From Candidatus Dadabacteria bacterium (lineage in GTDB: Bacteria > Desulfobacterota_D > UBA1144 > Nemesobacterales > CSP1-2), in NCBI GenBank assembly GCA_963805855.1, contig CAWDVW010000007.1, forward strand, positions 512,001-576,000: a DNA stretch of 64,000 nucleotides, in the 5' to 3' direction. A model generated the notes under the pieces. That model saw only the letters and a program-made list of their open reading frames with translations, was not told where the DNA came from and searched no databases. This document shows positions 44,358-64,000 of the stretch, in pieces (position 1 is the stretch's first letter; every line of letters begins with the position of its first letter). Both the position numbers and the translations under genes were made by a program.

Positions 44358-46358
44358 CTAAACTTCTGCCGTCATGTCCTTTGATCCTATGCTATATCTG
44401 GCAAGTACTTCCTGTTCCTTTTTGATGGGAGTAGGCCACATAATAACGATTGCCCCCAAAAGTAGAACCACGCCGCCGGCCCAAATCCACGATATCATTG
44501 GATTTATTAAAACCCTGAAGCTAGCGCTACCATCTTGAAAATTTGAAAGTATTACATAGAGGTCATGTGTAAACGAAGAAAGAATTGCAACCTCAGTTTC
44601 TTGATTAATTTCACGATTTCCGGAGTAAATATACACATTCTTTTCTGGAACTATTTCTCCGACCTTTCTCTCGCCATTAAATACTGAGAGGCTAGCGGCT
44701 GTCACATGTTTCGCATCTGTCGTATACTGGTTGATATTTCCAAACCTCAAAGTGACATCACCAACACTCATAGATTCCCCTGGCTTCAGTGTTGCCTCTT
44801 TTTGCTTAACAAAAACAGATGAGCCAGTCACACCGATCACTACCAAAACAACTCCGAGGTGGACTATGTAACCACCGTATCTCCTGCGGTTCTTGGATAC
44901 GAGTCTCCCGAAGGCTCGCAAATAATTTTCCCCTCTCCTAACCCGGACCTTCATCCCCCTGTAGTATTCTACAAACACGGTTGCGGTCACATACGCGCAC
45001 AGACCGAAGGAAATAAGAGCATAAATGTGTCTGATTCCGAAAACAAATAAGATTACAGATGTCAGAATTCCGGTTGCTACTGGAAACGTGAAATTCCTGA
45101 TTAAATTATCCTTCGACGCCTTCCTCCAGGAAATTAGCGGACCAATTCCCATCAGAAGTATCAATACTAAGCCGATCGGAACGTTCACCTTATTAAAATA
45201 CGGGGGACCGACAAGAATCTTGTTCCGCGTGACTAGTTCGGATATGAGTGGGAATATTGTTCCCAGAAATACGGTAAAAGCAGCGCCCAGAAAAAGAAGG
45301 TTATTAAATATGAAAGCGCTCTCTCTAGATAAAATGGAGTCGAAATGATTATCGCTTTTAAGATCATCTAATCTAAGAATAAACATGGCAAATGAGAAAA
45401 TAAGTATGAAACCTATAAAACCTAAGAAATAGGGACCAATGTCTGACTGGGCAAACGAATGAACCGAGGAAAGTATCCCGCTTCTGGTAACAAAGGTGCC
45501 AAATATTGCCAGGAAAAACGTTAGTATTATCAGCGATAAATTCCACTTTTTTAGCATTCCTCTTTTTTCTTGAATCATTACCGAGTGAACAAACGCCGTT
45601 CCGACAAGCCATGGCATAAATGCGGCATTCTCCACGGGATCCCATGCCCAGTAACCACCCCAACCTAATTCCAAGTAAGCCCACCTTGCACCCAGCAACA
45701 AACCAAGGCTTAAGAATGTCCATGCAAGCAGTGCCCATTTTCTAGATTGTCTTATCCACTCGTCATCCAACTTGCCGCTCAGAAGGGCGCCCATCCCAAA
45801 TGCAAAGGGTACCGTGACTCCAACATAACCAAGGTATAAGGTTAGAGGATGAATGGCCATATAGCCATTCTGCAGAATCGGGTTTAGCCCCCGTCCCTCT
45901 TCAGCGACGAAGGGTAGCTTTTCGAAAGGACTCTCAACAAAGGCTACAAGAAATATGAAGAAGGCCGAAACAGCAGCGAGTGTCGCGAGGACATATGGTG
46001 TGAACCTGCTTCGTCGCCTGTTCTGAAGCACTACAAGGGATGTATATATTGAGAGTATTAGGCACCATAGAAGCAGGGATCCAGCCTGGCCCGCCCACAA
46101 TGCGGTTATCCTGTAAATGGTAGACAGATCGCTACTTGCGTTTAAGGCGACATATTTAAGGCTGAAATCTAGATTCAGGAGAGCATGTATCAACGAGACG
46201 GCTGCTATGATTAGAAGAAAACAGACTGCAAGTGACCCGTTCTCGGCACTTTTGATTAAATCGTTCCTTCTGGTTTTCGCTCCAACGACCGAAGCAAATA
46301 TCGCGTACACGGAGAGTATAAAAGCTAAAAATATAGAAATGCTTCCAGTTTCGACCAT
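44358..46358 (-). CDS. ccmF: Cytochrome c heme lyase CcmF
   Basis: WAGQAGSLLLW, GLNPILQ, WAYLELGWGGYWAWDPVEN, SVHSFA. Confidence 0.96.
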   Translation of the reverse strand: MVETGSISIFLAFILSVYAIFASVVGAKTRRNDLIKSAENGSLAVCFLLIIAAVSLIHALLNLDFSLKYVALNASSDLSTIYRITALWAGQAGSLLLWCLILSIYTSLVVLQNRRRSRFTPYVLATLAAVSAFFIFLVAFVESPFEKLPFVAEEGRGLNPILQNGYMAIHPLTLYLGYVGVTVPFAFGMGALLSGKLDDEWIRQSRKWALLAWTFLSLGLLLGARWAYLELGWGGYWAWDPVENAAFMPWLVGTAFVHSVMIQEKRGMLKKWNLSLIILTFFLAIFGTFVTRSGILSSVHSFAQSDIGPYFLGFIGFILIFSFAMFILRLDDLKSDNHFDSILSRESAFIFNNLLFLGAAFTVFLGTIFPLISELVTRNKILVGPPYFNKVNVPIGLVLILLMGIGPLISWRKASKDNLIRNFTFPVATGILTSVILFVFGIRHIYALISFGLCAYVTATVFVEYYRGMKVRVRRGENYLRAFGRLVSKNRRRYGGYIVHLGVVLVVIGVTGSSVFVKQKEATLKPGESMSVGDVTLRFGNINQYTTDAKHVTAASLSVFNGERKVGEIVPEKNVYIYSGNREINQETEVAILSSFTHDLYVILSNFQDGSASFRVLINPMISWIWAGGVVLLLGAIVIMWPTPIKKEQEVLARYSIGSKDMTAEV

Positions 46359-46359
46359 T

Positions 46360-46776
46360 TTATATATTTTCAGACCTTTTTAAAGAATCTGTGGATTCGT
46401 ACTTGGTGGGACATTTGGCCAACAACAAACTAGCCACAAATACGTTATCCGGCGTATATAGACCCTCAACGACCGCTTCGATGTCATCTTTAAATATATC
46501 AGGAACTATTCCCTTATACTTTACATCCAATGTTTCTTCCCCGTCCGCAATCGTAAACTCTAGACTTCCATCAATCTCATTCCTAATCGATCCGGGAACG
46601 ACCTTTCCCGAGACCCTTACTTTTTGCTGATACACTGAAGGTACCTTATCCTTCAATTCCTGAACGGTAAGATAGTAGATCATCGTATCATTGACACCAC
46701 CGTAAACGAGGTATGCTATAGCAACTGCGATCACAACGATGGCTACTATGAATTTTGTCTTTCCTTTTAGCATCAA
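46360..46776 (-). CDS. ccmE: Heme chaperone CcmE, Cys variant
   Basis: VRVSG.V.PGS, Y.G..PD.F, LLAKCPTKY (CxxxY instead of HxxxY). Confidence 0.93.
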   Translation of the reverse strand: MMLKGKTKFIVAIVVIAVAIAYLVYGGVNDTMIYYLTVQELKDKVPSVYQQKVRVSGKVVPGSIRNEIDGSLEFTIADGEETLDVKYKGIVPDIFKDDIEAVVEGLYTPDNVFVASLLLAKCPTKYESTDSLKRSENI

Positions 46777-46803
46777 TTAACCGTCCTCACTGCAATAAAT
46801 AAG

Positions 46804-46947
46804 CTACCGACCTCCTTCATTTGAATCGAGAGAAGACTCGATAGACTCTAACTGATTTTTCAAGTCATGGTTTTTTCTAATAAGATAATAAACATATAGT
46901 AAAAGTACAATCCAAAAAATTACTTGCGACCAGAAAAGATAAGACAT
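46804..46947 (-). CDS. ccmD: Heme exporter protein CcmD (47 aa, below the ORF-track cutoff)
   Basis: MSYLFWSQVIFWIVLLLYVYYLIRKNHDLKNQLESIESSLDSNEGGR: aromatic TM then a charged tail, exactly between ccmC and ccmE. Confidence 0.8.
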   Translation of the reverse strand: MSYLFWSQVIFWIVLLLYVYYLIRKNHDLKNQLESIESSLDSNEGGR

Positions 46948-46952
46948 CTGCT

Positions 46953-47612
46953 TTACCTTGCCTCCATTAATCTAAGCCTAAGGATATTATCTTTCATGAT
47001 TTCTAGTTCTACTCTATGCTTAAGTATCAACAGGAACAAAAAAGTAAAAGCTACTAGTGTAACGAGCAATGCGACCATCATCTCCGGCGCAATACCACCG
47101 CCACCGGATCCAAATACAACCGGGGAGATTCCACGCATAACTCTCGCCGAAATGTAAACAAGCGGCAAGTCTAAAAACGCGATAATCCCAAAAACAGCGG
47201 CAAATTTTGCTTTCCTTATATCATTACCCGCAGATGAACGCAGTATCATATAAACAATGTAGAGAATCCAGAGAATAAATGTAGTAGTGAGTTGCGGATC
47301 CCAAGTCCACCAAGTCCCCCAGATGGGTTTTGCCCAAATACTACCCGATACTAGTGTAAGCGTAATAAAAACCACACCTATTTCAGCGGCAGAGTAAGCC
47401 AGGATATCCCAGTTACGACTCTCTTTTCTCAGATACTGTATACTTGCAACAAATACGATTACAAATGAAATAGTGGCGACCCAAACGGTTCCCATATGGA
47501 AATAAAAAATTTTTTGGATCGGTCCCATAACCTTCTCGGTCGGCGCGTAAATAAATGAAGCATAGAGCGAACCAATCATTGATATAAAAGTCAGAGCTAA
47601 AAGAAGATTCAT
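46953..47612 (-). CDS. ccmC: Heme exporter protein CcmC
   Basis: [30 protein letters not shown] domain. Confidence 0.93.
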
Positions 47613-49569: not shown

Positions 49570-51534
49570 ATGTTTAGCAAAGCCAAGTCTGAGAACCCCA
49601 CTCATCCAAAGAAGGCTGCTTTAATCGGAAATCCTAATGTCGGGAAAAGCTTAATTTTTGGTGCCCTTACCAAAAGATACGTTACCGTTTCAAATTATCC
49701 AGGAACAACGGTCGAGATAACCTCGGGAGAGATGAAAATCGGCTCAGAAACGATTTCTCTTATAGACACGCCCGGGGTTAATAGCCTGACGCCGACGTCG
49801 GAAGACGAAAGGGTTGTTAGAAATATTATATTCGAAGATGACATTAACTTTATAATTCAGGTTATAGATGCAAAAAACCTGGAGAGGGGTCTGTATATAA
49901 CAATTCAGGTTGCAGAAATGGGACTTCCCTTACTCATAGTTCTTAATATGATGGATGAAGCGCAACAAAGAGGAGTCGACATTAACATAGCAAATCTCTC
50001 TCATAAACTTGGGGTTCCTATCGTTCCGACTGTGGCAATCGAAAGAAAAGGAATAGAAGGAATTAAGAACGAACTTGTAAATTCGAGTATCCCTCAACTG
50101 AGAGTTCCTTACTCTCAAGCCATAGAAGGAATGTTAGCAGAAGTGAAACAAATTCTATCAAACCCTCATTTCTCAAGATTTATAGGCCTTTCTATCATAT
50201 CAGGCGACTGCAGAATGGATGAAGACATTATTAACAGAATTCCTAAAGAAAAGCTAGACTCAATTGCTGGACTTGATCCTCTCTCCAAGCTCGGCTCAAG
50301 GGAATATCCTATAAGCTATTTCATCGGTCTGAAGAGGCTTGAGCTCGCAAAAGAAATCGTTCAGAAGGTATCAACTGCCTCTTTTAAATCAGGCAACCGA
50401 ACCCTGGATCTTTTAGGACGGACATCGACTCATCCTGTATTTGGAATTCCTATATTAATTTTGATACTGTACCTCGCATATCTCTTCGTGGGAAAACTGG
50501 GGGCAGGAACATTCGTTGATTTCTTGGAGGTAACCGTCTTTGAAGGATATATAAACCCCTTTTTTAAAATAGTCATACCCAAAATTATTCCCTTCAAGAT
50601 ACTGATTGATTTTCTGGTAGGTGATTTTGGAATAATTACTATGGCGCTGACATACTCACTTGCAATCATTTTTCCGGTAATCTGCACATTTTTCATCTTT
50701 TTTAGTATCCTCGAAGATTCCGGATACCTCCCAAGGCTGGCCATTATGGTTGACAGGGTGTTTAAGTTAATGGGGCTAAATGGAAAAGTTGTACTCCCGA
50801 TGGTACTGGGGCTGGGATGTGACACAATGGCAACCCTTACCACGAGGATGCTCGAGACGAAAAAAGAAAGGCTAATTGTGATATTTCTTCTGGCTGTAGG
50901 AATCCCGTGTTCGGCCCAGCTCGCTGTGGTATTTGCTATGGCCTCTACTCTACCTCCGTGGGGTATTTTCTTTTGGGGAGTAGAAATTTGTGTTGTTCTT
51001 TTCGCAGTTGGCTTCCTCGCTTCTTACTTTGTAAAAGGAGAAAGCCGAGACCTTATTATTGAGGTTCCGCCCATAAGGATTCCACAAATCGGCAACGTAA
51101 TCGTTAAGACTATTGCGCGGCTTGAATGGTATTTGAAAGAAGCGGTCCCGCTCTTTATCTTGGGAACGATAATACTTTTTGTCTTGGATAGGCTCAAGGT
51201 TCTTGGATTTTTACAGAATCTGGCTTCACCGATCGTAGTAAAATTTCTTGACCTTCCTAAAGAGGCCACTAATGCCTTTTTAATCGGATTCCTGAGAAGA
51301 GACTATGGTGCTGCCGGCCTTTTCGATCTTCAACAGAGTGGATATTTGAGCAGCCATCAGGTTTTGGTAAGTCTTGTCACGATTACGCTATTTGTCCCCT
51401 GTGTTGCCAATTTTCTAATAATTATAAAGGAACAAGGGCTCAGAACCGCCCTTATTATAGTTGGGATAGTTCTTTTCATAGCCATTATTGTAGGAGGTAT
51501 GACGAATTGGATACTGTGGAGCCTCGGAATCTAA
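49570..51534 (+). CDS. feoB: Ferrous iron transporter FeoB
   Basis: GNPNVGKS, VSNYPGTTVE, DTPG, NMMD, LEDSGYLPR, gate cysteines (GLGC, IPCSAQ, VPCVA). Confidence 0.95.
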   Translation: MFSKAKSENPTHPKKAALIGNPNVGKSLIFGALTKRYVTVSNYPGTTVEITSGEMKIGSETISLIDTPGVNSLTPTSEDERVVRNIIFEDDINFIIQVIDAKNLERGLYITIQVAEMGLPLLIVLNMMDEAQQRGVDINIANLSHKLGVPIVPTVAIERKGIEGIKNELVNSSIPQLRVPYSQAIEGMLAEVKQILSNPHFSRFIGLSIISGDCRMDEDIINRIPKEKLDSIAGLDPLSKLGSREYPISYFIGLKRLELAKEIVQKVSTASFKSGNRTLDLLGRTSTHPVFGIPILILILYLAYLFVGKLGAGTFVDFLEVTVFEGYINPFFKIVIPKIIPFKILIDFLVGDFGIITMALTYSLAIIFPVICTFFIFFSILEDSGYLPRLAIMVDRVFKLMGLNGKVVLPMVLGLGCDTMATLTTRMLETKKERLIVIFLLAVGIPCSAQLAVVFAMASTLPPWGIFFWGVEICVVLFAVGFLASYFVKGESRDLIIEVPPIRIPQIGNVIVKTIARLEWYLKEAVPLFILGTIILFVLDRLKVLGFLQNLASPIVVKFLDLPKEATNAFLIGFLRRDYGAAGLFDLQQSGYLSSHQVLVSLVTITLFVPCVANFLIIIKEQGLRTALIIVGIVLFIAIIVGGMTNWILWSLGI

Positions 51535-51719
51535 TCTCCTGCCCGTTGTGTGGAGAGGAATTTCATAGGGAGGAGGGAACCGAAAAGTGTATAAGTTGCC
51601 CTATAAGTATAGGAGACTGCCTGTTGATCTGCTGCCCGAGATGTGGATATTCCTTCCCCCAGGAGTCAAAACTTATCCTGTGGCTAAAGAAAATCTTTAA
51701 ACCAGAGGGAAGAGCATGA
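51507..51719 (+). CDS. Small Cys-rich FeoB-associated protein
   Basis: CPLCG...CISCP...C...CCPRCGY; overlaps the feoB stop and the next start (ATGA). Confidence 0.78.
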   Translation: MDTVEPRNLISCPLCGEEFHREEGTEKCISCPISIGDCLLICCPRCGYSFPQESKLILWLKKIFKPEGRA

Positions 51720-52372
51720 AATACGATGAAGAAAGCGATGAACTGCTTGAGCTTATCTGGAAGCTCAGGGAAGAAAGCATCCAAGACGAAGAAACAATCT
51801 ACAAAAGGTCTTGGAACAAAGACGTGAAAAAAGCTATGACATGTGCTCTGGACGCGAATCTTTTAAGTAAGAGTGACGGCAAAATCAACCTTACCACAAC
51901 CGGCGAAGCGAGGGCAAAAATGATAGTCAGGCGCCACCGTCTCGCCGAGAAGCTTCTTAAAGATATACTCCGGGTAGGGTCCATTGAAATGGACTCTACA
52001 GCCTGTGAGCTTGAACATATTCTTGGTCCCGAGGTCACGGAATCTATTTGTGCTTTCCTTGGACATCCCAGGTTTTGTCCACATGGAAAACCGATTCCTC
52101 TAGGAGAATGCTGCGGAATTCTTAAAGAAGAAACTAAGGAATTTGTCGTTCCACTCGCGAAAATAATCCCCGGAGATAGGGCAAAGATAATCTTTTTGGT
52201 ACCCAGGCACCATATAAGATTGCATCAACTTACCAACCTGGGAATCATTCCCGGAGCTGAAATCGTCCTTCACCAAAAACAACCTGCATATGTATTAAGA
52301 GCAGGAGAGACAGATATTGCCATAGATGATGAAATTGCGAGACATATATACGTAAGGAAGGTTTCGACTTAG
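51716..52372 (+). CDS. DtxR/MntR-family metal-dependent regulator with a C-terminal FeoA domain
   Basis: RRHRLAE, ACELEH, LGHPRFCPHGKPIP, FeoA-like LTNLGIIPG. Confidence 0.88.
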   Translation: MKYDEESDELLELIWKLREESIQDEETIYKRSWNKDVKKAMTCALDANLLSKSDGKINLTTTGEARAKMIVRRHRLAEKLLKDILRVGSIEMDSTACELEHILGPEVTESICAFLGHPRFCPHGKPIPLGECCGILKEETKEFVVPLAKIIPGDRAKIIFLVPRHHIRLHQLTNLGIIPGAEIVLHQKQPAYVLRAGETDIAIDDEIARHIYVRKVST

Positions 52373-52466: not shown

Positions 52467-52482
52467 TGGCACATTTATTGCA
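52467..52482 (+). promoter_or_regulatory. sigma54 (-24/-12) promoter of the multiheme cytochrome cluster
   Basis: TGGCAC-ATTTA-TTGCA with exact GG-N10-GC spacing, about 125 nt upstream of ATG 52607. Confidence 0.75.
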
Positions 52483-52606: not shown

Positions 52607-53356
52607 ATGCCTCAACAGATAAAATATCTTCTCGCCCTTTCTATTGTCTTAATTCTCATTTTCCTAATTGCCCGCCATTTTCTTATGCCCGCAAGTTTTG
52701 GGCAATACGGTCATTATCGTGCCGATTCATTACAATCTGCAGTATCCAGGGAAATTAAATATGGCGGGGAAACTGCATGCAACGAATGCCATGATGATAT
52801 ATACATTTTAAAAGACAAATCATACCATCGGGGGGTTGCCTGCGAAGTATGCCATGGGCCTGCCTATGCCCATACCCAGGACCCGTATGAGTACAAACCC
52901 CCTGCACCAAGAAAACGCGCCTATTGTCCGTTGTGTCATGGATATAATCCCACAAGACCCACAGGATTCCCACAGATTGACCCTGTAAGACATAATCCCG
53001 GTAAGCCCTGCATTTTCTGCCATAATCCCCATGACCCGGTTCCTCCTGTTACGCCCCAGGAATGCGACCCATGCCACACGCAAATCGCCCGGACTAAAAT
53101 TGTCTCACCCCACGCACCCCTACCCTGTACTCGATGCCACGAAGCGAAGGAAGAGCATAAATTAAATCCAAGGATGGCTTTGCCGGATAAACCGAGGAAT
53201 AGAGAATTCTGTGGACAGTGCCACGCACAGGAGGCAGAAAGTTCCCCTGAAATTCCGCGTGTGGACATCAAAACTCATGGCAACGGTTTTTTGTGCTGGG
53301 AGTGTCACTATCCCCATTATCCTGAAGCCGGCATAAAGGAGGATGAGAAGCAATGA
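52607..53356 (+). CDS. Membrane-anchored octaheme cytochrome c (CbcS-like position)
   Basis: N-terminal TM; 8 CxxCH: CNECH, CEVCH, CPLCH, CIFCH, CDPCH, CTRCH, CGQCH, CWECH. Confidence 0.9.
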   Translation: MPQQIKYLLALSIVLILIFLIARHFLMPASFGQYGHYRADSLQSAVSREIKYGGETACNECHDDIYILKDKSYHRGVACEVCHGPAYAHTQDPYEYKPPAPRKRAYCPLCHGYNPTRPTGFPQIDPVRHNPGKPCIFCHNPHDPVPPVTPQECDPCHTQIARTKIVSPHAPLPCTRCHEAKEEHKLNPRMALPDKPRNREFCGQCHAQEAESSPEIPRVDIKTHGNGFLCWECHYPHYPEAGIKEDEKQ

Positions 53357-54165
53357 ATACTAAAGAGCTTCTTGATAACGTAACAAATAGGAGGAACTTT
53401 CTTAAAAGCCTCCTCATAATTCCCTCCGGGTTTTTTCTTGGCGGTCTTTTTTCTAAAATATTCCCCTTCTTCAAAAAGGCATCTCGTGAAAACACTTCCA
53501 CATTGGAAAGTATTTATGGGAAATACAATCCGAAGGAGCACTACTATGCGATGGGTATTGACATCGACAAGTGCATAGGGTGTGGACGATGTGTAGAGGC
53601 GTGCAAGATCGAAAATAATGTTCCTCAGGAACCCTATTTCTTCAGAACCTGGGTGGAAAGATATACTATTACAGTCGATGGAGAAACGAGTGTGGATAGT
53701 CCTGAAGGTGGAATGCATGGCTTCCCCGAGCCCGTTAGTGAGAAAGAAATCCTTCGCACCTTTTTCGTTCCAAAGTTATGTAATCAATGTGACAATCCAC
53801 CCTGTGTGCAGGTCTGTCCTGTTGGAGCCACATACCAGACAATAGATGGAGTTGTCCTTGTTGATAAAGACTACTGTATAGGATGTCGTTACTGCATTCA
53901 GGCCTGTCCTTATGGAGCGAGATATCTCAATCCTGAGACTAAGACGGCGGACAAATGCACATTTTGTTATCACAGAATCGTAAAGGGATTGCAGCCTGCT
54001 TGCGTAGAGGTATGTCCCACTGGAGCAAGAACTTTTGGAGAAGTAAAACCACGCAACAATCCCCTTGCGCGATTTGTCCGATTCAACAATATTGGTGTCT
54101 TAAAGCCCTATCTTAACACAGAACCCAAGGTCTACTATGCTAATCTAGACAAGGAGGTTACCTAG
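53353..54165 (+). CDS. Tat-exported 4x[4Fe-4S] ferredoxin subunit (NrfC/DmsB family, CbcT-like)
   Basis: NRRNFLK Tat motif; CIGCGRCVEAC, CNQCDNPPCVQVCP, CIGCRYCIQACP, CTFC...CVEVCP. Confidence 0.92.
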   Translation: MNTKELLDNVTNRRNFLKSLLIIPSGFFLGGLFSKIFPFFKKASRENTSTLESIYGKYNPKEHYYAMGIDIDKCIGCGRCVEACKIENNVPQEPYFFRTWVERYTITVDGETSVDSPEGGMHGFPEPVSEKEILRTFFVPKLCNQCDNPPCVQVCPVGATYQTIDGVVLVDKDYCIGCRYCIQACPYGARYLNPETKTADKCTFCYHRIVKGLQPACVEVCPTGARTFGEVKPRNNPLARFVRFNNIGVLKPYLNTEPKVYYANLDKEVT

Positions 54166-55368
54166 TTGGATCCCTTACTTGAGAGACTTGCCATTTCCCT
54201 TAAAGAAGTTACAGGCTTCATCTATCCCAATGAGATTGAGCTCCATTGGAGCATCCTAATTGTTGTTTATCCCTATCTTACGGGTCTTGTAGCAGGGGCT
54301 TTTATTCTGGCTTCACTGGAAAGGGTTTTTAATGTTAAAGAGGTAGAGCCTACTTACCGGCTTTCTCTTCTCACTGCGCTTGCTTTCCTTATTGTCGCGC
54401 CTCTTCCTCTTGTGGCTCATCTAGGACATCCCGAACGGGCCTATGAAATTTTCCTCACACCCAATTTCAAGTCTGCTATGGCTATGTTTGGCTTTGTATA
54501 TGGCTGGTATCTATTAGTTGTTCTTCTCGTGGAATTGTGGTTTGAGTACAGGAAGGATATCGTTGTCTGGTCTAACAAAGAAAGAGGGTTGAAAAGGTTT
54601 ATTTATCTCATCTTAACCCTTGGGGCTTCAGACCTTTCAGAAAGATCTCTTCAGTTTGACAGAAAGGCTGCAAAATTTATAACCATCATAGGCATTCCAT
54701 CCGCTTTCCTCCTTCATGGTTATGTGGGTTTTATCTTCGGCTCTGTGAAGGCGAACCCCTGGTGGAGCAGTGTGCTTATGCCAGTAGTTTTTTTGTTTTC
54801 CGCTATAGTATCGGGGATCGCGCTTGTGATGTTACTCTACATGGTTATTACTCTCTTTCGACGAAAAAGTGTGGATATGGCCTGTATGGATAAGCTCGCT
54901 TCCTTTTTGCTCTATGCAATGATACTGGACTTCTCACTGGAAAACCTTGACTTCATTCACCGCATTTACGAATCAGAAGAATCCATAAAAATACTGTACC
55001 AGCTTTTAATCAGCAAGCTATTCATCAGTATGGTTGTGATTCAGATGCTGTTAGGAACTATAATTCCAATGGTCTTATTGGCATGGACAAAGTTGACGCG
55101 CCTTCCTGATGAGTTAAGGCGTCTTATCTACTTTGGGAGCGCAATTCTTACCCTGATAGGAATTTTTAGTATAAGATGGAATGTGGTTATCGGGGGGCAA
55201 TTATTTTCCAAGAGCTTAAGAGGGCTTACAACGTACAAAATGGAATTGCTCGGAATTGAAGGACTCTTGGTGGCGTTATTCTTTCTAACGCTCCCATTTA
55301 TTATTCTGTACATCCTCGTTGCTCTGTTGCCGCCATGGAAGGAAGCAGAGGTTAAAATTGAAACGTAG
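54166..55368 (+). CDS. NrfD/PsrC-family quinol-interacting membrane subunit (CbcU-like)
   Basis: WSILIVVYPYLTGLVAG, HLGHPER, LHGYVGF, RWNVVIGGQ; TTG start with AAGGAGG RBS. Confidence 0.9.
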   Translation: MDPLLERLAISLKEVTGFIYPNEIELHWSILIVVYPYLTGLVAGAFILASLERVFNVKEVEPTYRLSLLTALAFLIVAPLPLVAHLGHPERAYEIFLTPNFKSAMAMFGFVYGWYLLVVLLVELWFEYRKDIVVWSNKERGLKRFIYLILTLGASDLSERSLQFDRKAAKFITIIGIPSAFLLHGYVGFIFGSVKANPWWSSVLMPVVFLFSAIVSGIALVMLLYMVITLFRRKSVDMACMDKLASFLLYAMILDFSLENLDFIHRIYESEESIKILYQLLISKLFISMVVIQMLLGTIIPMVLLAWTKLTRLPDELRRLIYFGSAILTLIGIFSIRWNVVIGGQLFSKSLRGLTTYKMELLGIEGLLVALFFLTLPFIILYILVALLPPWKEAEVKIET

Positions 55369-55575
55369 AAGTTTTTCAGTTAGGGGCTATAGGAAGCTAA
55401 AGATATATCTGAAAAGTGTGACTTAAAAATCCGTTTGATTTCGTAACGAAATGAAAGGATTCAGGTGAAAAAACATGTATAAATTTCCCGCACGTCTTGG
55501 TTTGATGGTCAAAGATACCGGTTGCACCAAGCTATTAGCTGTATGTTAAAGAAAAGGCAACATGTGATACAAGTT

Positions 55576-57582
55576 ATGCGATCAAATGAGCGATTGTTTC
55601 TCTTAACTCTTTTCTTTTTAATTTTTTGTCCCTTCACAGTTACTTCCGGTTCTGATGAGCTTAAAAGTGAAGACTGCCTTATATGTCACGAGACGATGGA
55701 GCCCTTGGTTGATAAAGGACTCTTAGATGCCTCAATCCATAGTGGTTTCGAGTGCACAGATTGTCATCAGGACGTAACACAGATACCCCACGAAGAAGTC
55801 CCGAAGAAGGTTGATTGCTCTTCATGTCACCCAGAGATTGCGAAAGAATACTCTGAAAGTATACATGGTGAAGCAATAGCGAGGGGTGATCGCGATGCCC
55901 CAATTTGTACGAGTTGTCACGGCTCACACGGCATTCTTCCAAAGAATAACCCTAAATCTCATATAAACCCCTTGAATATTCCTGCGACATGTTCAAATTG
56001 CCATACAAGTGAAAAGATTACAAAGCAGCACCCACTCCCGTCACCGGAATTTATTGAGAGTTACAGTAAAAGTGTTCACGGCCGTGGCGTCCTTGTCAGT
56101 GGGCTAGTTGTCTCCGCGGTTTGTTCCGACTGCCATGGTGCGCATAATATAAAGCCCAAAAGTGACAAAAACTCCGGTGTCTATAGGGCAAATATACCGC
56201 TAACCTGTAAGAAGTGCCATCTTGGAATCTATGATGACTATGAGAGGAGCATCCATGGACAGCTCTGGAAAGAAGGTTTCGAAGCGGGACCAGTGTGTAC
56301 GACATGCCACAAATCCCATCAGATCACAGAGCCTGTGTCAGCTGGATTCAGGCTTCAGATATCTGAGGAGTGTAGTGGATGCCATGAGGCCAGAGCACTT
56401 ACCTATCGGGACACATTCCACGGGCAGTCAACGTCTCTAGGGTTTGTTCAGGTCGCAAAATGCTCAGATTGCCATACCCCTCACCTAAATCTTCCAGAAG
56501 AAAACCCACTTTCATCAGTCTATTCCGGAAATCTCATCGACACTTGCGGCAAATGTCACTCCAATATAAATAAGAAATTTATCACCTATGACCCACATGC
56601 CGATCCTCACGATAAGGATAGATCTCCTCTGCTTTATTACGTAAATACCCTCATGAATTGGCTTCTCATTTCAGTTTTTGGCTTTTTTGGCTTACATCTG
56701 GTTCTTTGGCTTCAGCGCTCAGCCGTAGCAGTAGCAAGGGGCGAGATTCCCACCCACTGGAGCGGCGACAAGTATGTTCGCCGGTTTAGCCTTCCCCACA
56801 GGATTACGCACGTTACTCTTGTCATAAGCTTCCTAGGACTTGCTGCTACGGGACTTCCACTCATGTATAATTACACGGCGTGGGGAAAAATTCTCGAAGG
56901 AATTCTAGGCGGCGTTGAGGTTACAAGGTACTTCCATAGATTCTTTGCAATAGTGACATTGGGTTACATTAGTTTTCATCTCGGTTATATGCTAGACAAG
57001 ATATTTTTAAAGGGCAACATAAGCCTTCTCTATGGTCCTAATTCTATGATTCCTAGGAGTGAAGACATTGTGGATCTCTACAAGAACATAAGGTGGTTCT
57101 TATACTTAGGTCCCCGTCCGAAACTGGACAGATGGACATATTGGGAGAAGTTCGATTATTTTGCGGTTTTCTGGGGAATACCGGTGATAGGCTTCTCCGG
57201 ACTTATGCTCTGGTTTCCCGAGGTCTTTACAAAGATTCTTCCTGGCTACTTTCTAAATGTGGCAATGATAGTCCACGGAGAGGAAGCCCTTCTTGCAGTT
57301 GGATTCATATTCACATTCCATTTCTTCCACACCCATCTCCGACCTGAGAGTTTTCCGTTAGACACTGTCATTTTTACCGGCAAAATACCTCTGGAAAGAT
57401 TTATCGAGGAAAGACCCGAAGAATACAATAGGCTACTCAAAGAGGGAAGGCTTGAAGAAATCATTGTTGAACCGCCATCACAACTTGCTATCATGTTCTC
57501 TAAGTGGTTTGGTTTTGCTGCACTAGGCGTAGGATTGATCTTGATCATCGCGATCTTTGCGACCTTCCTTGCTAATATTTAG
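55576..57582 (+). CDS. CbcL-like fused multiheme cytochrome c / FdnI-HydC-type cytochrome b
   Basis: Signal peptide from ATG 55576 (track start 55522), 11 CxxCH, then a TM domain with RRFSLPHRITH, FHRF, WTYWEKFDYFAVFWG, HGEEALLA, HFFHTH. Confidence 0.88.
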   Translation: MRSNERLFLLTLFFLIFCPFTVTSGSDELKSEDCLICHETMEPLVDKGLLDASIHSGFECTDCHQDVTQIPHEEVPKKVDCSSCHPEIAKEYSESIHGEAIARGDRDAPICTSCHGSHGILPKNNPKSHINPLNIPATCSNCHTSEKITKQHPLPSPEFIESYSKSVHGRGVLVSGLVVSAVCSDCHGAHNIKPKSDKNSGVYRANIPLTCKKCHLGIYDDYERSIHGQLWKEGFEAGPVCTTCHKSHQITEPVSAGFRLQISEECSGCHEARALTYRDTFHGQSTSLGFVQVAKCSDCHTPHLNLPEENPLSSVYSGNLIDTCGKCHSNINKKFITYDPHADPHDKDRSPLLYYVNTLMNWLLISVFGFFGLHLVLWLQRSAVAVARGEIPTHWSGDKYVRRFSLPHRITHVTLVISFLGLAATGLPLMYNYTAWGKILEGILGGVEVTRYFHRFFAIVTLGYISFHLGYMLDKIFLKGNISLLYGPNSMIPRSEDIVDLYKNIRWFLYLGPRPKLDRWTYWEKFDYFAVFWGIPVIGFSGLMLWFPEVFTKILPGYFLNVAMIVHGEEALLAVGFIFTFHFFHTHLRPESFPLDTVIFTGKIPLERFIEERPEEYNRLLKEGRLEEIIVEPPSQLAIMFSKWFGFAALGVGLILIIAIFATFLANI

Positions 57583-57730
57583 AGCCTCTTCGAGAGACGG
57601 AGTTATACTAAATGTTGATAATTAATTTAGAAAACAAAGCACAGTCTTCGATATAAACATAAACTTGAAACGCGGGTATATTTTTGGTGAGACTACTGAT
57701 GAATCTTAGATCCACAAGGGAGAAGTTCAC

Positions 57731-59239
57731 ATGAGATTACCTAGGCTTGTCCACAATTGGTTAAGCTATGCCGGTGCGGCTATAGCGGCTCTGTCGCTAA
57801 TTCTTTTTATCTTCCTATTTGCCCTTCACTCAATCGTTGATACCTCAGGAGTGCCGTACGCCGGGCTGATCATCTTCGTACTTGTTCCGATGATTTTTGT
57901 TTTCGGTATGATACTCATCCCGATCGGCATGTTGCTGGAGTGGCGCCTCTGGAGAACCAAGCGTATAAGATCATTACCGCGGTTTCCTATAATCGACTTA
58001 AACAACCCAAACCAACGGAATGCGACATTCATCTTTTTAGTGGGCTCAATCCTGCTCATACTTCTTGTTACTGTTAGTGGTTACAAAGCCTATCATGTGA
58101 CTGATTCGGTCGCCTTCTGCGGCACGCTTTGCCACAGCGTGATGCAACCCGAGTACACCGCTTATCAGAATTCGCCCCATGCAAGGGTCCGCTGCGTCGA
58201 CTGCCATGTGGGACCAGGGGCGGACTGGTTTGTCAAATCCAAAATGTCAGGACTATACCAGGTTTACGCGGTTCTCCTTAACAAATACCCGAGGCCTATT
58301 CCGGTCCCAATCGAGAGCTTACGCCCTGCCCAGGAAACATGTGAGCAGTGTCACTGGCCCGAGCAATTTTTTGGGGCCCAACAAAAAAGGCTGATCCATT
58401 TTTTGCCTGACGAGAATAATACTCGTTGGGATATTAATCTGCTTATCAAAATCGGTGGGGGCAGCCCTGAGACCGGGCTGACCGAAGGAATCCACTGGCA
58501 CATGAACATTGCCAATCGGGTTGAATATATCGCCACGGATGAGATCCGACAGGAGATTCCCTGGGTAAGAATGACGAATTTGGAAACTGGAGAGGCTATC
58601 GAGTACATGTCAACCGAAAATCCACTTTCAGAGGAAGAAATCGGCAATGCACATATACGGAAGATGGACTGCATGGATTGCCACAACCGACCCACGCACA
58701 TTTTCCGTTCCCCTAGCTACTCGATGAATCTCGCTTTAGGCACCGGCAAGATAGATCCTACGTTGCCCTTCATTAAACAAACCGGCGTCAAACTGCTGTC
58801 TGGAAATTATGACTCCACGGAATTGGCGCTTGGGGAAATTGAGAGTGGGGTCAAAAAATTCTACCGGGACGGAAATTCTGACTTGACAAATCACAAAGAA
58901 GATTTGATTTCCGGTGCAATAGTGGGGATCCAGGACATTTATCAGAACAACTTTTTCCCTGATATAATGAAGGTGCGGTGGGACGTCTACCCGAATAACG
59001 TCGGTCACCTGAATTCCCCTGGGTGCTTTCGCTGTCACGATGGACTTCACAAGACTGCAGACGGAAAGATGATCACGACTAAGTGTACTGCCTGCCATAC
59101 TATCATATCACAGGGAACACCAGAGAATATGGAGTATTCAATGGAACCAGACGGGCTTGCTTTTCGGCATCCCGAGGATATCGGAGAGATGTGGAAGGAG
59201 ATAAAGTGTAGCGACTGCCACACCGGCCAACTGCCATGA
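57731..59239 (+). CDS. ImcH-like NapC/NirT-family heptaheme inner-membrane cytochrome c
   Basis: 3 N-terminal TMs; CGTLCHSVM (CX3CH) plus 6 CxxCH (CVDCH, CEQCH, CMDCH, CFRCH, CTACH, CSDCH); YQNSPHARV, LRPAQETC, GIHWHM. Confidence 0.87.
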   Translation: MRLPRLVHNWLSYAGAAIAALSLILFIFLFALHSIVDTSGVPYAGLIIFVLVPMIFVFGMILIPIGMLLEWRLWRTKRIRSLPRFPIIDLNNPNQRNATFIFLVGSILLILLVTVSGYKAYHVTDSVAFCGTLCHSVMQPEYTAYQNSPHARVRCVDCHVGPGADWFVKSKMSGLYQVYAVLLNKYPRPIPVPIESLRPAQETCEQCHWPEQFFGAQQKRLIHFLPDENNTRWDINLLIKIGGGSPETGLTEGIHWHMNIANRVEYIATDEIRQEIPWVRMTNLETGEAIEYMSTENPLSEEEIGNAHIRKMDCMDCHNRPTHIFRSPSYSMNLALGTGKIDPTLPFIKQTGVKLLSGNYDSTELALGEIESGVKKFYRDGNSDLTNHKEDLISGAIVGIQDIYQNNFFPDIMKVRWDVYPNNVGHLNSPGCFRCHDGLHKTADGKMITTKCTACHTIISQGTPENMEYSMEPDGLAFRHPEDIGEMWKEIKCSDCHTGQLP

Positions 59240-59309: not shown

Positions 59310-59969
59310 TTAGGGTGTTATCTCTATTAATCCCTTTCGAATGGCAAATTTTATGAGGTCGGTTCGGGTGTGAATATTAAGCTTTTCCATTATGTGTGTT
59401 CGATGGCCCATCACAGTTTTAACACTCATGTAAAGCATATCAGCGATCTCATTGTTCTTATAGCCCTCTGCAACAAGCTTTAGCACCTGTTTTTCTCTAT
59501 TAGTGAGGCTTTCGTAAGGGTCTTCTTCAATATCTTTATCCTTTCCTTGCAGGTACCCCTCTATCACAACAGGAGCGACCTCGGGATGCAAAAACGTACT
59601 GCCTCTCATCGCTGCTTGAATCGCGGATATAAGCTCTGTACTCGTTGCTTTTTTAAGGACATAGCCAGAAGCACCTGCTTTTAAGAACCTGTATATATAT
59701 TCTTTATTATCATACTGGGTAAGGACAATGATTTTTGTCTTAGGGCAGGCATTTCGTATCTCCAGAGTGGCTTCGAGCCCACCTAGGCCAGGCATAGCGA
59801 TATCCATTAGCACCACATCCGGCTTGACCTTTCGGGCTTTTTCTATAGCTTCCCTACCATCTGTGGCATCGCCCACGACGTCAATGTCTCCGCAACCCTC
59901 TAGAAGCGCCCTTATGCCTTCACGTATAAGGGCATGGTCGTCGGCGATAAGCACCTTTATATTACTGAT
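59310..59969 (-). CDS. NarL/LuxR-family response regulator; likely start is ATC at 59969 (track start is GTG at 59954)
   Basis: IKVLIADDH, VLMDIAMP, GASGYVLK, LTNREKQVL...SVKTV..HR HTH. Confidence 0.92.
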   Translation of the reverse strand: MSNIKVLIADDHALIREGIRALLEGCGDIDVVGDATDGREAIEKARKVKPDVVLMDIAMPGLGGLEATLEIRNACPKTKIIVLTQYDNKEYIYRFLKAGASGYVLKKATSTELISAIQAAMRGSTFLHPEVAPVVIEGYLQGKDKDIEEDPYESLTNREKQVLKLVAEGYKNNEIADMLYMSVKTVMGHRTHIMEKLNIHTRTDLIKFAIRKGLIEITP

Positions 59970-59970
59970 T

Positions 59971-61827
59971 TTAGCTAACCTCCCTTAATGGAACCGTAAC
60001 TACAACCCTTGTCCCAGATCCGGGTTGTGACTGTACTTCAAGCTTTCCATCCAGAAGTAAGACCCGTTCCTTCATTCCGAGAAGCCCAAGCCCCCGGCTA
60101 CCCGACTCTGTACTTGATATACTCCCCAAATCAAATCCAATGCCATCGTCTTCAATCTCTAAACTAATGAAACTATCTTCAATCTCCAGATTAATAATAA
60201 CATTTTCCGCTTGAGAGTGCTTGGCTATATTCGTTATAGCCTCTTGAGCAACCCTAAATAGCACGGTTTCGATCTGGGTCTGAAATCTTTTTTCAAACAG
60301 ATCTCCTTCGTAGCGGAAATTAATGCCCAAGGGCTTGAGGCGTTCTTCTGCATACCACTTTATAGCAGCAGGAAGCCCGAGGTCATCAAGGATAGCAGGA
60401 CGGAGGTCAAAAATCATGCGGTGTGTGCTATCTATAGCACGAAGTGCGAGTTTCCTTGCATTATCTATTTTCACCTCAAGCAACTTAGGTGCGCTCGCCT
60501 CTCTTATTGCTTCGAGGGAAATGAGCATTGCAGCAAGAGTTTGGCTCATTTCATCGTGTAACTCCCTTGCAATTCTCTTCCGTTCTTCTTCCTGGGCTGA
60601 GATTATCCTACGGAGGAGTTCTCCTCGCTTCTCCTCCTTCTTCCTGAGTTCCTCATACAGAGAAAGGGTTTCTTTTGTTCTCTTATCCACCCTCCTCTCA
60701 AGTTCTCCTGTCCAGGCAGCGATTTCGTCCCGGGAATCCTTGAGCTTAATCCTCATTTCATCCAGGGTTTTGCCAAGTTGCCCGATTTCATCGTCTCCGG
60801 ATATAGAAATAGGCTCAAAGAGATTGCCAGAAGCAATTCTCCGGGCAGACATTGTTAAAGATTTAACCGGTGCAATAACGCTCTGAGCTACCCCTAGGGT
60901 TAGAATTAGAGTGACTACAAACAATACGGCGCCAAACGTAAAAAAGCGCCTTTTCATACTCTCCACAGGAGCAAGGGCTTCCCTCTCAGACTGTCTGATA
61001 TCGATTCCCCAAGGGATCTCGGAGAGAGGAGCAAAAGCCATGATCTCTTTTTTTGGCTCATCCTTTACGGCCTTCTCGTGGCAGTTGTGGCATGTTCCTA
61101 CGCTGGGCTGGCCCGTCTTGATAAGTCCTGAAAGAGTTCCGCCATGGTCACTCTCCGTTAGGATGTTTTCCGGTTTCGTAGAGGCTAAAACAAACCCGTT
61201 TCCGTCTACTATTTCGATATACCCTGTCTCCCCAATCTTTACTGGACGGATAACCCTAGCCAATGCAGGTCCGGTAGGGTCAATTTCCCCTCCTACGACA
61301 CCCAATGTTCTTCCATTCTTAACCATAGGGATCAGAGCGAATACCGCCTTTTTTGCTTGAGGCCTTATCTCGAATAAATTAGAAACGATAGGCTTCCCCG
61401 TGAGAATAGACTCTCTAACAGGGGGAAAACCCCCGAAATTTGATTCGGCAAGGGCTGGACGAGGAGGTTCTATCCACAAGAGATGCCCTCTACCGTCAAG
61501 CAAAAACACGTTGGCGAAAATTGACCGCAATAATGCATTGTGAAGAGCGGCTTTCTCCGCTGCCAGGTCTTCGTCTGCCAGATTGACGCCCTTGGAGAAA
61601 GCAACTTCTTGAAGATACATAAGATTCTGCCTGATTAAATCCTCGAGATTGCTCGCAACTGTTTGGGCAAGCACGAGCCGCTCTCGAAGCATTTGGTTGA
61701 CACTGTCGCGCATACTCAAAAAATCCGAGACACCAAGTATTGCTAGTATGGTCAGCACACCAGAGGCGCTGAGTAAGATTATTCTTCTTCGCAGGCTGGG
61801 TCTTTCAAAAAAGGATCTTAAGCCCAT
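59971..61827 (-). CDS. HisKA_3 sensor histidine kinase with a Cache-like periplasmic domain containing CxxCH, plus HAMP
   Basis: Two TMs with CHNCH between them, HAMP (DEIGQLG), ERKRIARELHD, QEAITNIAKHS, DDGIGF, GLGLLGMKER. Confidence 0.92.
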   Translation of the reverse strand: MGLRSFFERPSLRRRIILLSASGVLTILAILGVSDFLSMRDSVNQMLRERLVLAQTVASNLEDLIRQNLMYLQEVAFSKGVNLADEDLAAEKAALHNALLRSIFANVFLLDGRGHLLWIEPPRPALAESNFGGFPPVRESILTGKPIVSNLFEIRPQAKKAVFALIPMVKNGRTLGVVGGEIDPTGPALARVIRPVKIGETGYIEIVDGNGFVLASTKPENILTESDHGGTLSGLIKTGQPSVGTCHNCHEKAVKDEPKKEIMAFAPLSEIPWGIDIRQSEREALAPVESMKRRFFTFGAVLFVVTLILTLGVAQSVIAPVKSLTMSARRIASGNLFEPISISGDDEIGQLGKTLDEMRIKLKDSRDEIAAWTGELERRVDKRTKETLSLYEELRKKEEKRGELLRRIISAQEEERKRIARELHDEMSQTLAAMLISLEAIREASAPKLLEVKIDNARKLALRAIDSTHRMIFDLRPAILDDLGLPAAIKWYAEERLKPLGINFRYEGDLFEKRFQTQIETVLFRVAQEAITNIAKHSQAENVIINLEIEDSFISLEIEDDGIGFDLGSISSTESGSRGLGLLGMKERVLLLDGKLEVQSQPGSGTRVVVTVPLREVS

Positions 61828-61828
61828 C

Positions 61829-62389
61829 TCAATCGTGAATGCTCCTTGCTATTTTAAGTAAATCCTCAACCGACCCGTTAGATCTTAAGACTATCTTTCT
61901 ATCCCCTTGTCTCCAGCTTAGCTGTGTCCACCGGCTTCCTTTCTCCACTACACCGAGTTCTAGCGTCCCTTTCGCTCCACCGACCGAGACTTGAATCTCT
62001 TCGGAATCTCTATTGGGTTCCATTAAATCGACTCCCAACCCTTTGCTTTCATCTGTGTTTGAAATAATTTCGTAAATTACCAAGCTAGGCCTACCATCTC
62101 CTTGTGAAATGAATACCAGTGTTATAATGAGGGAGGGCTTTCTTACCACCCTGATTTCTTCAGGCGGCCAGATGAGATAATCTGGGAAGTATGAGGGAAG
62201 AAATATTTTTAATCCAAGTGAAAATTCAGCTTCTTCTACGCTACTGTAAAATTTGTGTTCGCTTTCCTTTATATATGCGGGGACTTTTTTCAAAATGTAT
62301 AGTGATATCAATACCACACACATCAAGATAGTGATAGATAACACTATTTTCGACATTTCTCTTAAAAAGTAAGTAGCTTTTCCAGTCAT
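61829..62389 (-). CDS. Hypothetical single-TM protein with a periplasmic domain
   Basis: N-terminal TM; YSSVEEAE...LPSYFP and LSW...L.IARS resemble DUF4367-like anti-sigma periplasmic folds; stop lies 1 nt before the kinase start. Confidence 0.7.
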   Translation of the reverse strand: MTGKATYFLREMSKIVLSITILMCVVLISLYILKKVPAYIKESEHKFYSSVEEAEFSLGLKIFLPSYFPDYLIWPPEEIRVVRKPSLIITLVFISQGDGRPSLVIYEIISNTDESKGLGVDLMEPNRDSEEIQVSVGGAKGTLELGVVEKGSRWTQLSWRQGDRKIVLRSNGSVEDLLKIARSIHD

Positions 62390-62437: not shown

Positions 62438-63460
62438 TCATACGACAAAGAATAGCAGCACAATTAGCGAAAAAGCTGTTATACCGAGTCGAATATTTGG
62501 ATACGGAGGTTTATAGATATTCTTTGGGCGTACCAACCTTGTTACTCTGTTCTCGATTCGTACCCTGTGCGAGTGACTCTCAATATTATGAGCTATTGAT
62601 AAGATTCTACCTCTAAAGCCGGACTTTGATATTTGAGAAGACCCACCTGCTTTACCCATCCGAAAAATTTTTACTAAGCTTGAAGCGATAGCAAGCGGCT
62701 TCCCGGTAAACGTTGAAGCAAGATCATCGCAGAGTGTCTCTCGTTCATTTATGATTCTTCGAAATTCAACAAGGACAACCGGATTATAAAACATGATGAA
62801 TCGAAAAGTGAATAATACCCAACCTGTGGCGTTATCCTTTCTCAATACGTGACCCATCTCATGGGCAAGCACCCCTTGTAGCTCTTCAAGGTCGAGAGCC
62901 TCTATGAGAGAATAGGAGATGTTGATGGAACCGTTCGTCAGCCCTTTTGCATATATTATAGGCTCTTTCCCGTTTAATAGGAAAATCCTTGGCACAGCCA
63001 TAGGTAACCTTTGCTCCAGATCTCTTATGACTCCATCAAGTTTAGGAATTGTACCACTCCTATAAAGGGTCTTATCGTCCTCTCCAGCATAGTGATGAAT
63101 TAGTGTCGGAATAGCTTCTTGTACAACAAAAATAAGGGTCACAACTCCCAATAGGACAAGAGCTAAATGCCAAACCAAAATGCCGTCAACCAATCTTAAA
63201 AGTAGCCATTGGTTTATATCGAAGATAGCCATATCTTCACGGAACTCCGAGCTTCCGCGATGAGGATAGATCAGTTGATACAGAGGGAAAGATAAAACCG
63301 GAATCAGTATTACGAGACTACGAAACCTGATTTGTAGGAGCGGACGCTCTTCATGCCATATTTTTAATAATACTTCAATAACAAGGGCTATGATAAAAGA
63401 ATGCAGTACACACTGAAACACATATTGACTAAAACTAAATTCCAAAAAATCCATTTCCAT
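62438..63460 (-). CDS. M56 (BlaR1/MecR1-like) membrane metallopeptidase
   Basis: TM segments, LAHEMGH (HExxH), FYNP, ERETLCDD. Confidence 0.85.
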   Translation of the reverse strand: MEMDFLEFSFSQYVFQCVLHSFIIALVIEVLLKIWHEERPLLQIRFRSLVILIPVLSFPLYQLIYPHRGSSEFREDMAIFDINQWLLLRLVDGILVWHLALVLLGVVTLIFVVQEAIPTLIHHYAGEDDKTLYRSGTIPKLDGVIRDLEQRLPMAVPRIFLLNGKEPIIYAKGLTNGSINISYSLIEALDLEELQGVLAHEMGHVLRKDNATGWVLFTFRFIMFYNPVVLVEFRRIINERETLCDDLASTFTGKPLAIASSLVKIFRMGKAGGSSQISKSGFRGRILSIAHNIESHSHRVRIENRVTRLVRPKNIYKPPYPNIRLGITAFSLIVLLFFVV

Positions 63461-63517: not shown

Positions 63518-64000
63518 TTATACATTATCCCCTTTTTCGTCCCCAGCAAGTTCTTTATTCTCTTCATTCTTAGTCCAGGATTTAATAACCTCTGCGTATT
63601 CTAAAGGGTGATCTTTTTCCATTCTCTCTCGTGAAATCTTTCCAGTGAATATACTCGGGTCGAATGGAAATACATCGGGGTTAAAATGTGCTCCATACAT
63701 ATGCCAGATAATTATGACGAGAAAGGCAAGCAGAGCCTCATAACCGTGGACAGTTTCCGCTACAGGTATGATCACTCCCGGTAAGAATTTTGTAAAAAAG
63801 ATCGGAAAGTAGAGGACAAAGCCTGAAACGATCATAAACATCCCGCCGAGTACAAGTCCCCAATATTCAAACTTTTGCCTAAAATCGTAGCGACCGAATT
63901 TAGGGTGCTCCTCGGAAAGCCCCATGTAGTATCTAAGCATTCCCACGGCATCGTTGAAATCCTTAAATGTTGGGATTATCGAAGGTCGTACCTTTCTCAG
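63518..64000 (-). CDS. FdnI-type cytochrome b (CbcB-like), C-terminal part; runs off the window edge
   Basis: Open to the window end; RYDFRQKFEYWG, HGYEALLA, WHMY, HFNPDVFP, HPLEY. Confidence 0.85.
   Translation of the reverse strand: MRKVRPSIIPTFKDFNDAVGMLRYYMGLSEEHPKFGRYDFRQKFEYWGLVLGGMFMIVSGFVLYFPIFFTKFLPGVIIPVAETVHGYEALLAFLVIIIWHMYGAHFNPDVFPFDPSIFTGKISRERMEKDHPLEYAEVIKSWTKNEENKELAGDEKGDNV

Follow-up and report, generated by a model that had tools for sequence, protein, structure and literature searches.

A sensor histidine kinase of a Dadabacteria genome carries a CxxCH motif in a predicted extracytoplasmic double Cache domain, where a heme c is very probably attached by the cytochrome c maturation (Ccm) system. 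For the system as a whole, we lean slightly towards a heme-c redox sensor which reports on its own quinone-linked module and regulates that operon. The gene lies in a DNA stretch of 64,000 nucleotides, called the window below. Features are collected in Table 1, where positions above 64,000 belong to the sequence following the window.

Table 1. Features of the kinase, its operon and the surrounding region (positions relative to the window)
Feature	Position	Strand	Basis or remark
ccmC, ccmE, ccmF (System I cytochrome c maturation)	44358..47612	-	Pfam
Sigma-54 (-24/-12) promoter TGGCAC-N5-TTGCA of facing operon	52467..52482	+	pattern and alignment
Facing cytochrome operon	52607..59239	+	five products
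NarL/LuxR-type response regulator (Response_reg + GerE)	59310..59969	-	Pfam
Sensor histidine kinase, 618 aa, TM1-dCache_1-TM2-HAMP-HisKA_3-HATPase_c	59971..61827	-	open frame, Pfam, hydropathy
HisKA_3, H-box ELHDE (H424)	60394..60585	-	Pfam
TM2, about aa 294-316	60880..60948	-	hydropathy
Membrane-proximal Cache module, about aa 196-285	60973..61242	-	best-conserved part of sensor
R278, candidate heme-propionate contact	60994..60996	-	covariation with motif
dCache_1 extracytoplasmic domain, aa 43-275	61003..61701	-	Pfam, AF2 model, solved-structure matches
CHNCH, probable heme c attachment motif (C246, C249, axial H250; H247 conserved too)	61078..61092	-	aa 246-250
H228, candidate second axial ligand	61144..61146	-	residue conservation
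TM1, about aa 14-36	61720..61788	-	hydropathy
186-aa protein of kinase operon, hydrophobic N-terminal stretch, weak DUF4367 match	61829..62389	-	
M56/BlaR1-like membrane peptidase, kinase operon	62438..63460	-	
FdnI-type cytochrome b, kinase operon	63518..64000, on to 64312	-	
9-CxxCH cytochrome, upstream of cytochrome b, kinase operon	64341-65411		
Candidate operator/promoter of kinase operon	65946-65992		between monoheme gene and small-protein gene

Hydrophobic windows of 19 residues begin at aa 14-21 and aa 293-304 of the kinase, and because CHNCH is flanked by these two membrane segments it is predicted to be extracytoplasmic. This topology bears out the periplasmic placement, between TM1 and TM2, made in the initial annotation; the coordinates given there (61078-61092) fit CHNCH, but the nine residues quoted with them, GTCHNCHEK, span 61072-61098. 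C246 and C249 are the only cysteines of the kinase. The dCache_1 profile (PF02743, cut-off 45) is matched at 45.3 bits by the whole kinase and at 48.5 bits by the domain alone, and by 33 of 33 family members at E up to 1; among the NCBIfam families none is matched by the kinase above cut-off. The H-box His, the N and G boxes and an adjacent REC-LuxR regulator with acceptor Asp and Lys identify a two-component system, and the HisKA_3 kinase/NarL regulator pair described initially is recovered by Pfam (HisKA_3 in the kinase, Response_reg and GerE in the next gene). This HAMP-HisKA_3-HATPase output with its REC-LuxR partner is shared with NarX/UhpB/LiaS-type kinases, whose sensor domain differs from the dCache_1 found here. 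The closest titled relatives, with sensors 89% and 78% identical, are from a 'Thermodesulfobacteriota' MAG and a Candidatus Dadabacteria MAG. RNA was represented, in one run, by only two 151-base contigs at depth 2.

The AF2 model of aa 38-292 (58 sequences, mean pLDDT 92) consists of a long helix and two Cache modules. C246 ends strand 242-247, the third strand of the membrane-proximal module, and is followed by a low-confidence loop and two strands; H228 lies just ahead of the helix preceding the C246 strand. The Cache fold anticipated at the outset is present, refined to a double Cache with the motif in the membrane-proximal module. The best solved structural matches are dCache domains, many with Z 18-21. 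The two-module fold is common to the dCache_1 sensors PctA (Foldseek E 3.5e-14), Mlp37 (Z 21.4, rmsd 3.1 over 229 aligned residues), KinD, DctB and the HK1 family, and no heme is named in the titles of the 50 best matches listed; a search of the ESM Atlas returned generic dCache clusters only. The amino-acid-binding motif of PctA-type sensors is not recovered: RPWY of PctA, which we take to be this motif of the distal module, aligns with FPPV in the kinase. Unlike in ordinary dCache_1 sensors, conservation sits in the proximal module, where 22 of 90 columns are conserved above 80%, compared to 4 of 86 in the distal module.

Conservation of the CxxCH across homologues, on which the heme proposal had been made to depend, was considered against its background frequency. 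About 0.0005 motifs per 255 aa are expected by chance from the C and H frequencies of the host genome, and long open frames containing no more than one motif show 0.004. Of 62 homologues of the sensor region, 58 have the motif at the corresponding position; the remaining four comprise one CX3CH, one CxxCR and two sequences without cysteines at this place. A profile built from 33 motif-bearing domains retrieved 308 clusters at E up to 1e-30. The representatives (50% identity) of the best 150 of these 308 were checked for the motif, and of the 144 which cover the module 121 have CxxCH, 1 has CX3CH, 2 have CxxC without His and 20 are Cys-less. Because the motif was part of the query in both searches, these shares are inflated. 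The CX2CH spacing is strict; of 249 rows, 2 are CX3CH variants and 6 have CxxC without His. The second residue of the motif, H247, is also His in 116 of the 121 motif bearers; in the neighbouring multiheme cytochromes (486 motifs) His lies outside the eight commonest residues at this position. A simple bis-His heme leaves this conservation unexplained.

The 43 loci from named genomes obtained by a pattern-limited scan are mostly from Chloroflexota, with Dadabacteria-related genomes, one Binatia and unclassified records. Among 120 genomes of the host phylum a single-sequence query matched only 4, all within the host's own family. Assigned by simple motifs, the outputs of motif-bearing sensors are HisKA_3 in 65 cases and HisKA in 15, while 41 are truncated or unassigned; in relatives the same sensor is also joined to HisKA kinases with OmpR/KdpE-looking partners. 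Stand-alone sensors, sought among proteins of 140-447 aa, gave 6 matches, apparently truncated kinases. Six genomes of the Dehalococcoidia class (G133, G224, G125, G143, G161, G312) have 4-6 paralogues of the sensor family each. In a FastTree tree with motif columns masked (177 of 188 rows after near-duplicate removal, midpoint root), the Cys-less members form one clade of 17 and four small lineages among motif bearers, which suggests repeated loss of the motif in a tree with weak deep support and no outgroup.

Two further residues were compared between motif bearers and their Cys-less sisters. Arg occupies position 278 in 103 of the 121 motif bearers and in 1 of the 20 sisters, 15 of which have E. 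H228 is present in 110 of 121 motif bearers and in all 20 sisters; covariation thus does not support it as a heme-specific residue, and it must have a role without need of a covalent heme. Where H228 is replaced, a Cys is found within aa 223-233 in 5 of 11 cases, which are not independent, compared to 3 of 110 elsewhere, and 10 of the 11 have another C, M or H nearby. A Cys near a lost H228 is the pattern expected if an iron ligand were needed at this place. The motif stretch is about 3 residues longer than in the Cys-less sisters (median 30 and 27, respectively). In sisters of this form (L022, L027, L028, L090-L096) H228 is kept and positions 250 and 278 are often Glu; these sensors may bind heme b or a metal. 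In two other members (L037, L039) CRY replaces SDH, and Cys or Tyr could be a heme ligand there in place of H228.

An exported CxxCH in a cell containing Ccm is normally a Ccm substrate. The accessibility to Ccm proposed initially is supported by the ccm genes of the window and by the co-occurrence of the CxxCH form with CcmF. In 301 genomes sampled from the class of one Dehalococcoidia genome, 33 with the sensor family and 135 with CcmF, the latter is found in 21 of 22 genomes whose best family match has CxxCH, in 5 of 11 with the Cys-less form and in 109 of 268 without the family. These counts concern System I only, in incomplete and related genomes with at most eight candidates per genome scored. 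No CcmF match was obtained for one genome with the motif (G144, 1.4 Mb); CcmF is found in 32 of the 35 genomes behind the 43 named-genome loci. Neighbourhoods were examined for genes with two or more CxxCH within 8 kb, at loci with at least 9 kb of cover, shorter ones being dropped. Such a gene is present at 27 of 41 motif loci compared to 3 of 40 control loci, in agreement with the location beside a cytochrome island pointed out initially, and counting ccm, NrfD or cytochrome b genes as well raises the first figure to 31 of 41. Controls were 40 other kinase loci, taken from among 234 HATPase matches of five of the genomes on the basis of score and of available flank; in these same five genomes, multiheme neighbours are present at 5 of 13 motif loci, or at 7 of 13 when ccm or cytochrome b is included. 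Cys-less loci score 7 of 12 as well, so the neighbourhood marks the family and not the motif. The Fisher values are overstated because the genomes are related. Co-occurrence with CcmF, multiheme neighbourhoods, the Cys near a replaced H228 and the covariation of R278 together make a heme c likely and a sixth ligand from the protein plausible.

A conserved CxxCH in an extracytoplasmic Cache fold fused to HAMP/signalling outputs is also what characterizes sCache_heme (DUF3365/Tll0287-like, PF11845), whose members include GSU0582, GSU0935, Tll0287 and the P. azotoformans Cache_heme-HAMP receptor, according to the accessible part of PMC12889525. The initial annotation had likened the kinase to this deltaproteobacterial (Geobacter) chemoreceptor type, a likeness which did not hold: the sensor belongs to a separate dCache_1 family. 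Membership of PF11845 was rejected since 0 of 33 family members matched the profile at E up to 1, profile-profile comparison gave a probability of 13.8%, the module is double by Pfam and the AF2 model, and the motif lies in another hairpin. The same profile was matched in 12 of 120 genomes of the host phylum; in the host genome neither PF11845 nor the control query of that search gave a match. The text available of Deshpande et al. (PMC12889525) describes a single Cache module whose CxxCH belongs to a helical insertion preceding the final strand, whereas in the kinase the motif is at a strand end with two strands after it. PF11845 members of the host phylum also have the motif before the last strand, and a model of one (mean pLDDT 67, best match 5b82) places it in helix 122-128 with one strand following. 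Tll0287, GSU0582 and GSU0935 are not among the 50 best fold-search matches listed. The kinase family is mostly found in Chloroflexota, where sCache_heme is reported to be rare in the same part of Deshpande et al. (PMC12889525).

Geobacter-type heme sensors, two-component proteins included, are already listed in the consulted parts of PMC3831638 and PMC8396549. The latter names G. sulfurreducens proteins with CX2-4CH (GSU0283, GSU0303, GSU0356 and others) which, like our kinase, are of kinase type with a heme c motif. The comparison covers these two traits, and no Geobacter record is among the 43 loci of the pattern-limited scan. A kinase with a heme c motif is not new in itself, then, but the double-Cache heme-c family is apparently undescribed. 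A literature search, in which few subscription journals were covered, gave no account of heme c in a dCache domain, although datasets behind the bioRxiv preprints might include such proteins. The word 'dCache' is absent from the available portion of the follow-up preprint 10.64898/2026.05.25.727664.

The kinase is encoded in an operon with a cytochrome module. A small protein of 153-174 aa precedes the 9-CxxCH cytochrome, and a monoheme cytochrome gene is located further upstream, beyond the end of the window. A 7-9-heme cytochrome/cytochrome b set lies immediately upstream of the kinase at seven other loci (L007, L009, L011, L014-L016, L020). The facing operon encodes an 8-CxxCH cytochrome, an NrfC-like Fe-S protein, NrfD, an 11-CxxCH cytochrome-cytochrome b fusion (CbcL-like by architecture, not by sequence comparison) and a NapC/NirT-type cytochrome. 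This operon is preceded by a sigma-54 site conserved in 4 of 4 aligned genomes. The strict sigma-54 pattern occurs 24 times in the host genome compared to 5.5 expected, and RpoN is encoded. Sigma-54-like sites are also located ahead of the Rieske/cytochrome b6 operon and of genes lying upstream of the monoheme cytochrome, and read-through from sigma-54 promoters may thus reach the kinase operon as well. About 20 kb upstream, a sigma-54 activator is encoded together with its own kinase.

At the kinase operon, within a non-coding block, an inverted repeat TAGGG-N6-CCCTA (G000:C7:577975-577992) overlaps a sigma-70-like promoter, TTGCAA-18-TATATT. The palindrome is conserved together with the -35/-10-like boxes in all 4 genomes aligned (the host, L005, L151 and L006, the last with one degenerate arm). 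The exact repeat occurs twice in the host genome, about as often as with other spacer lengths, so the argument is one of conservation and position, not of rarity. With a scoring matrix built from the very site which it ranks first, the own operon has the top score of the host genome (25.9 bits), 31 other sites score 13-18 bits, and none of ten other island intergenic regions has a palindrome-like site above 5.8 bits. By itself the promoter scan hardly exceeds chance (4 found, 1.8 expected). The palindrome was found in the closest relatives only, not in more distant family loci, and no other operator motif was evident by eye in the upstream regions, covered in part, of 18 loci of the family. 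Its location at the own promoter points to autoregulation.

From these elements the following mechanism can be proposed. The kinase would be exported with its dCache_1 domain outside the membrane, and Ccm would attach one heme c to C246 and C249, with H250 as axial ligand. We regard as evenly balanced whether this heme occupies the proximal module or its mouth, beside TM2, where H228 would probably supply the second ligand and R278 would contact a propionate. With two protein ligands the heme would be a redox cofactor equilibrating with the 9-heme cytochrome/cytochrome b module and, through it, with the quinone pool. A shift in oxidation state or in ligation would be transmitted by TM2 and HAMP to H424 and then to the NarL-type regulator, as in a standard two-component relay. 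The most likely binding site of the regulator would be the palindrome which overlaps the -35 box in front of its own operon; this operon comprises the small protein, the 9-heme cytochrome, cytochrome b, the M56 peptidase, the 186-aa protein, the kinase and the regulator. Judging from these sites, the system would on balance probably exert feedback control on a single quinone-linked module instead of choosing between routes.

Several other explanations have to be weighed against this one. A heme c with an open or labile sixth site, sensing NO or CO in the manner of signalling-fused sCache_heme proteins and with H228 or H247 as distal-pocket residues, is in our estimate unlikely. It would agree with the lack of covariation between H228 and the motif, with the tight binding of NO by the sCache_heme-HAMP protein from P. 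azotoformans (PMC12889525, in its accessible part) and with the distal ligand swap and the NO and CO binding given for GSU0582 and GSU0935 in the portion of PMC8396549 consulted. A likely ligand is nevertheless kept near position 228 in nearly all motif bearers, and what recurs in the neighbourhood are cytochrome modules linked to quinones, and ccm genes. The five residues H228, C246, H247, C249 and H250 might instead form a Zn, Cu or Ni site, or the cysteines a redox-active disulfide, all without heme. The conservation of three His and two Cys within a short stretch, the unexplained H247, the few residues which the motif adds over the sisters, the rows with CxxC but no His, and feoB with a DtxR-type regulator 8-10 kb away would all suit such a site; we hold it to be improbable, since it is the motif form and not the Cys-less form which tracks CcmF, the CX2CH spacing is strict and an exported motif of this kind would normally be taken by Ccm.

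A different possibility concerns the target and not the sensor. The initial annotation proposed that the heme reads redox potential or a gas directly and that the regulator chooses which quinol-oxidase route is expressed; a heme-c redox or gas sensor is likely, but the choice of route is not supported. The kinase pair does lie between two quinone-linked modules, in an order kept in L005, L006 and L150, CbcL and ImcH serve G. sulfurreducens at different acceptor potentials according to the part of PMC6295460 consulted, and repression or indirect control of a sigma-54 promoter would be possible. Sigma-54 promoters require an AAA+ activator and cannot be activated by a NarL-type regulator. The idea is weak for this reason, with such sites before both the facing and the Rieske/cytochrome b6 operons, an AAA+ activator nearby and the candidate operator only at the own operon, and we consider a switch between the island's routes quite unlikely. 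Finally, a small molecule could bind the distal module as in ordinary dCache sensors, the heme being structural or modulating. The canonical fold with an intact distal module and the persistence of motif-less members in several lineages are compatible with it; the poor conservation of the distal module and the absence, in the alignment, of the PctA amino-acid-binding residues make it very improbable.

As to the origin of the family, one separate from sCache_heme would be the simplest reading, and we tentatively suggest, at somewhat less than even confidence, a second and independently evolved heme-c Cache family which reads the potential of the quinone-linked multiheme chain from outside the membrane. 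The covalent-heme motif would then have arisen almost in register, in a different hairpin, in a proximal pocket with a pre-existing conserved His which survives in the Cys-less sisters. A direct sensor of respiratory potential would have been shuffled onto NarL-type and OmpR-type outputs in Chloroflexota and other uncultured lineages. In the available part of its later version, the 2026 preprint of Deshpande et al. presents sCache_heme as the first Cache domain with a covalent cofactor and a stepwise origin of its motif as unlikely; a dCache family whose motif lies elsewhere, and which exceeds its Cys-less sisters by only about 3 residues, would represent a second origin. It would also run counter to the published view, as given there, that the motif is gained only by insertion of a cytochrome fragment. 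The sisters are natural pairs with and without the motif for comparison. The family is sizeable, with the 308 clusters mentioned above (motif checked in the best 150), and often multi-copy in Dehalococcoidia-class genomes. The kinase is a concrete, expressible candidate for extracytoplasmic redox sensing in cells with several quinone-cytochrome modules.

Other features of the region deserve mention. The regulator has no ATG: its first common start is a GTG at 59954, with a possible ATC start at 59969. Behind a GGAGG box the start reads ATG in L006, ATC in the window and L150, and ATA in L005, which suggests use of a non-canonical start codon. The M56 peptidase has no adjoining BlaI-type gene; its pair with the 186-aa protein is also found in L005, L006 and L010, and the latter protein follows the M56 gene in 3 of 43 loci. 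Six CxxCH and a CX3CH motif (CGTLCH) are present in the NapC-type cytochrome (57731-59239, plus strand). feoB and a DtxR/FeoA-domain regulator (49570-52372, plus strand) are located between the ccm genes and the cytochrome operon, a position kept in L150, L153 and L155. Window-relative positions 71907-87897 contain two 5-heme cytochromes with Rieske and cytochrome b6 genes, hemA, a 10-heme protein and 4- and 7-heme cytochromes; part of this respiratory set is contiguous with the kinase operon in L006 and L152. A second kinase, encoded past the end of the window (minus strand, G000:C7:594078-595673 = L157:4078-5673), has CANSSCH, a CX4CH motif, between its membrane segments, a weak match to a four-helix-bundle sensor, HAMP, HisKA and a sigma-54 activator as partner, beside multiheme cytochromes. 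This second pair is a candidate controller of the sigma-54 promoters of the island.
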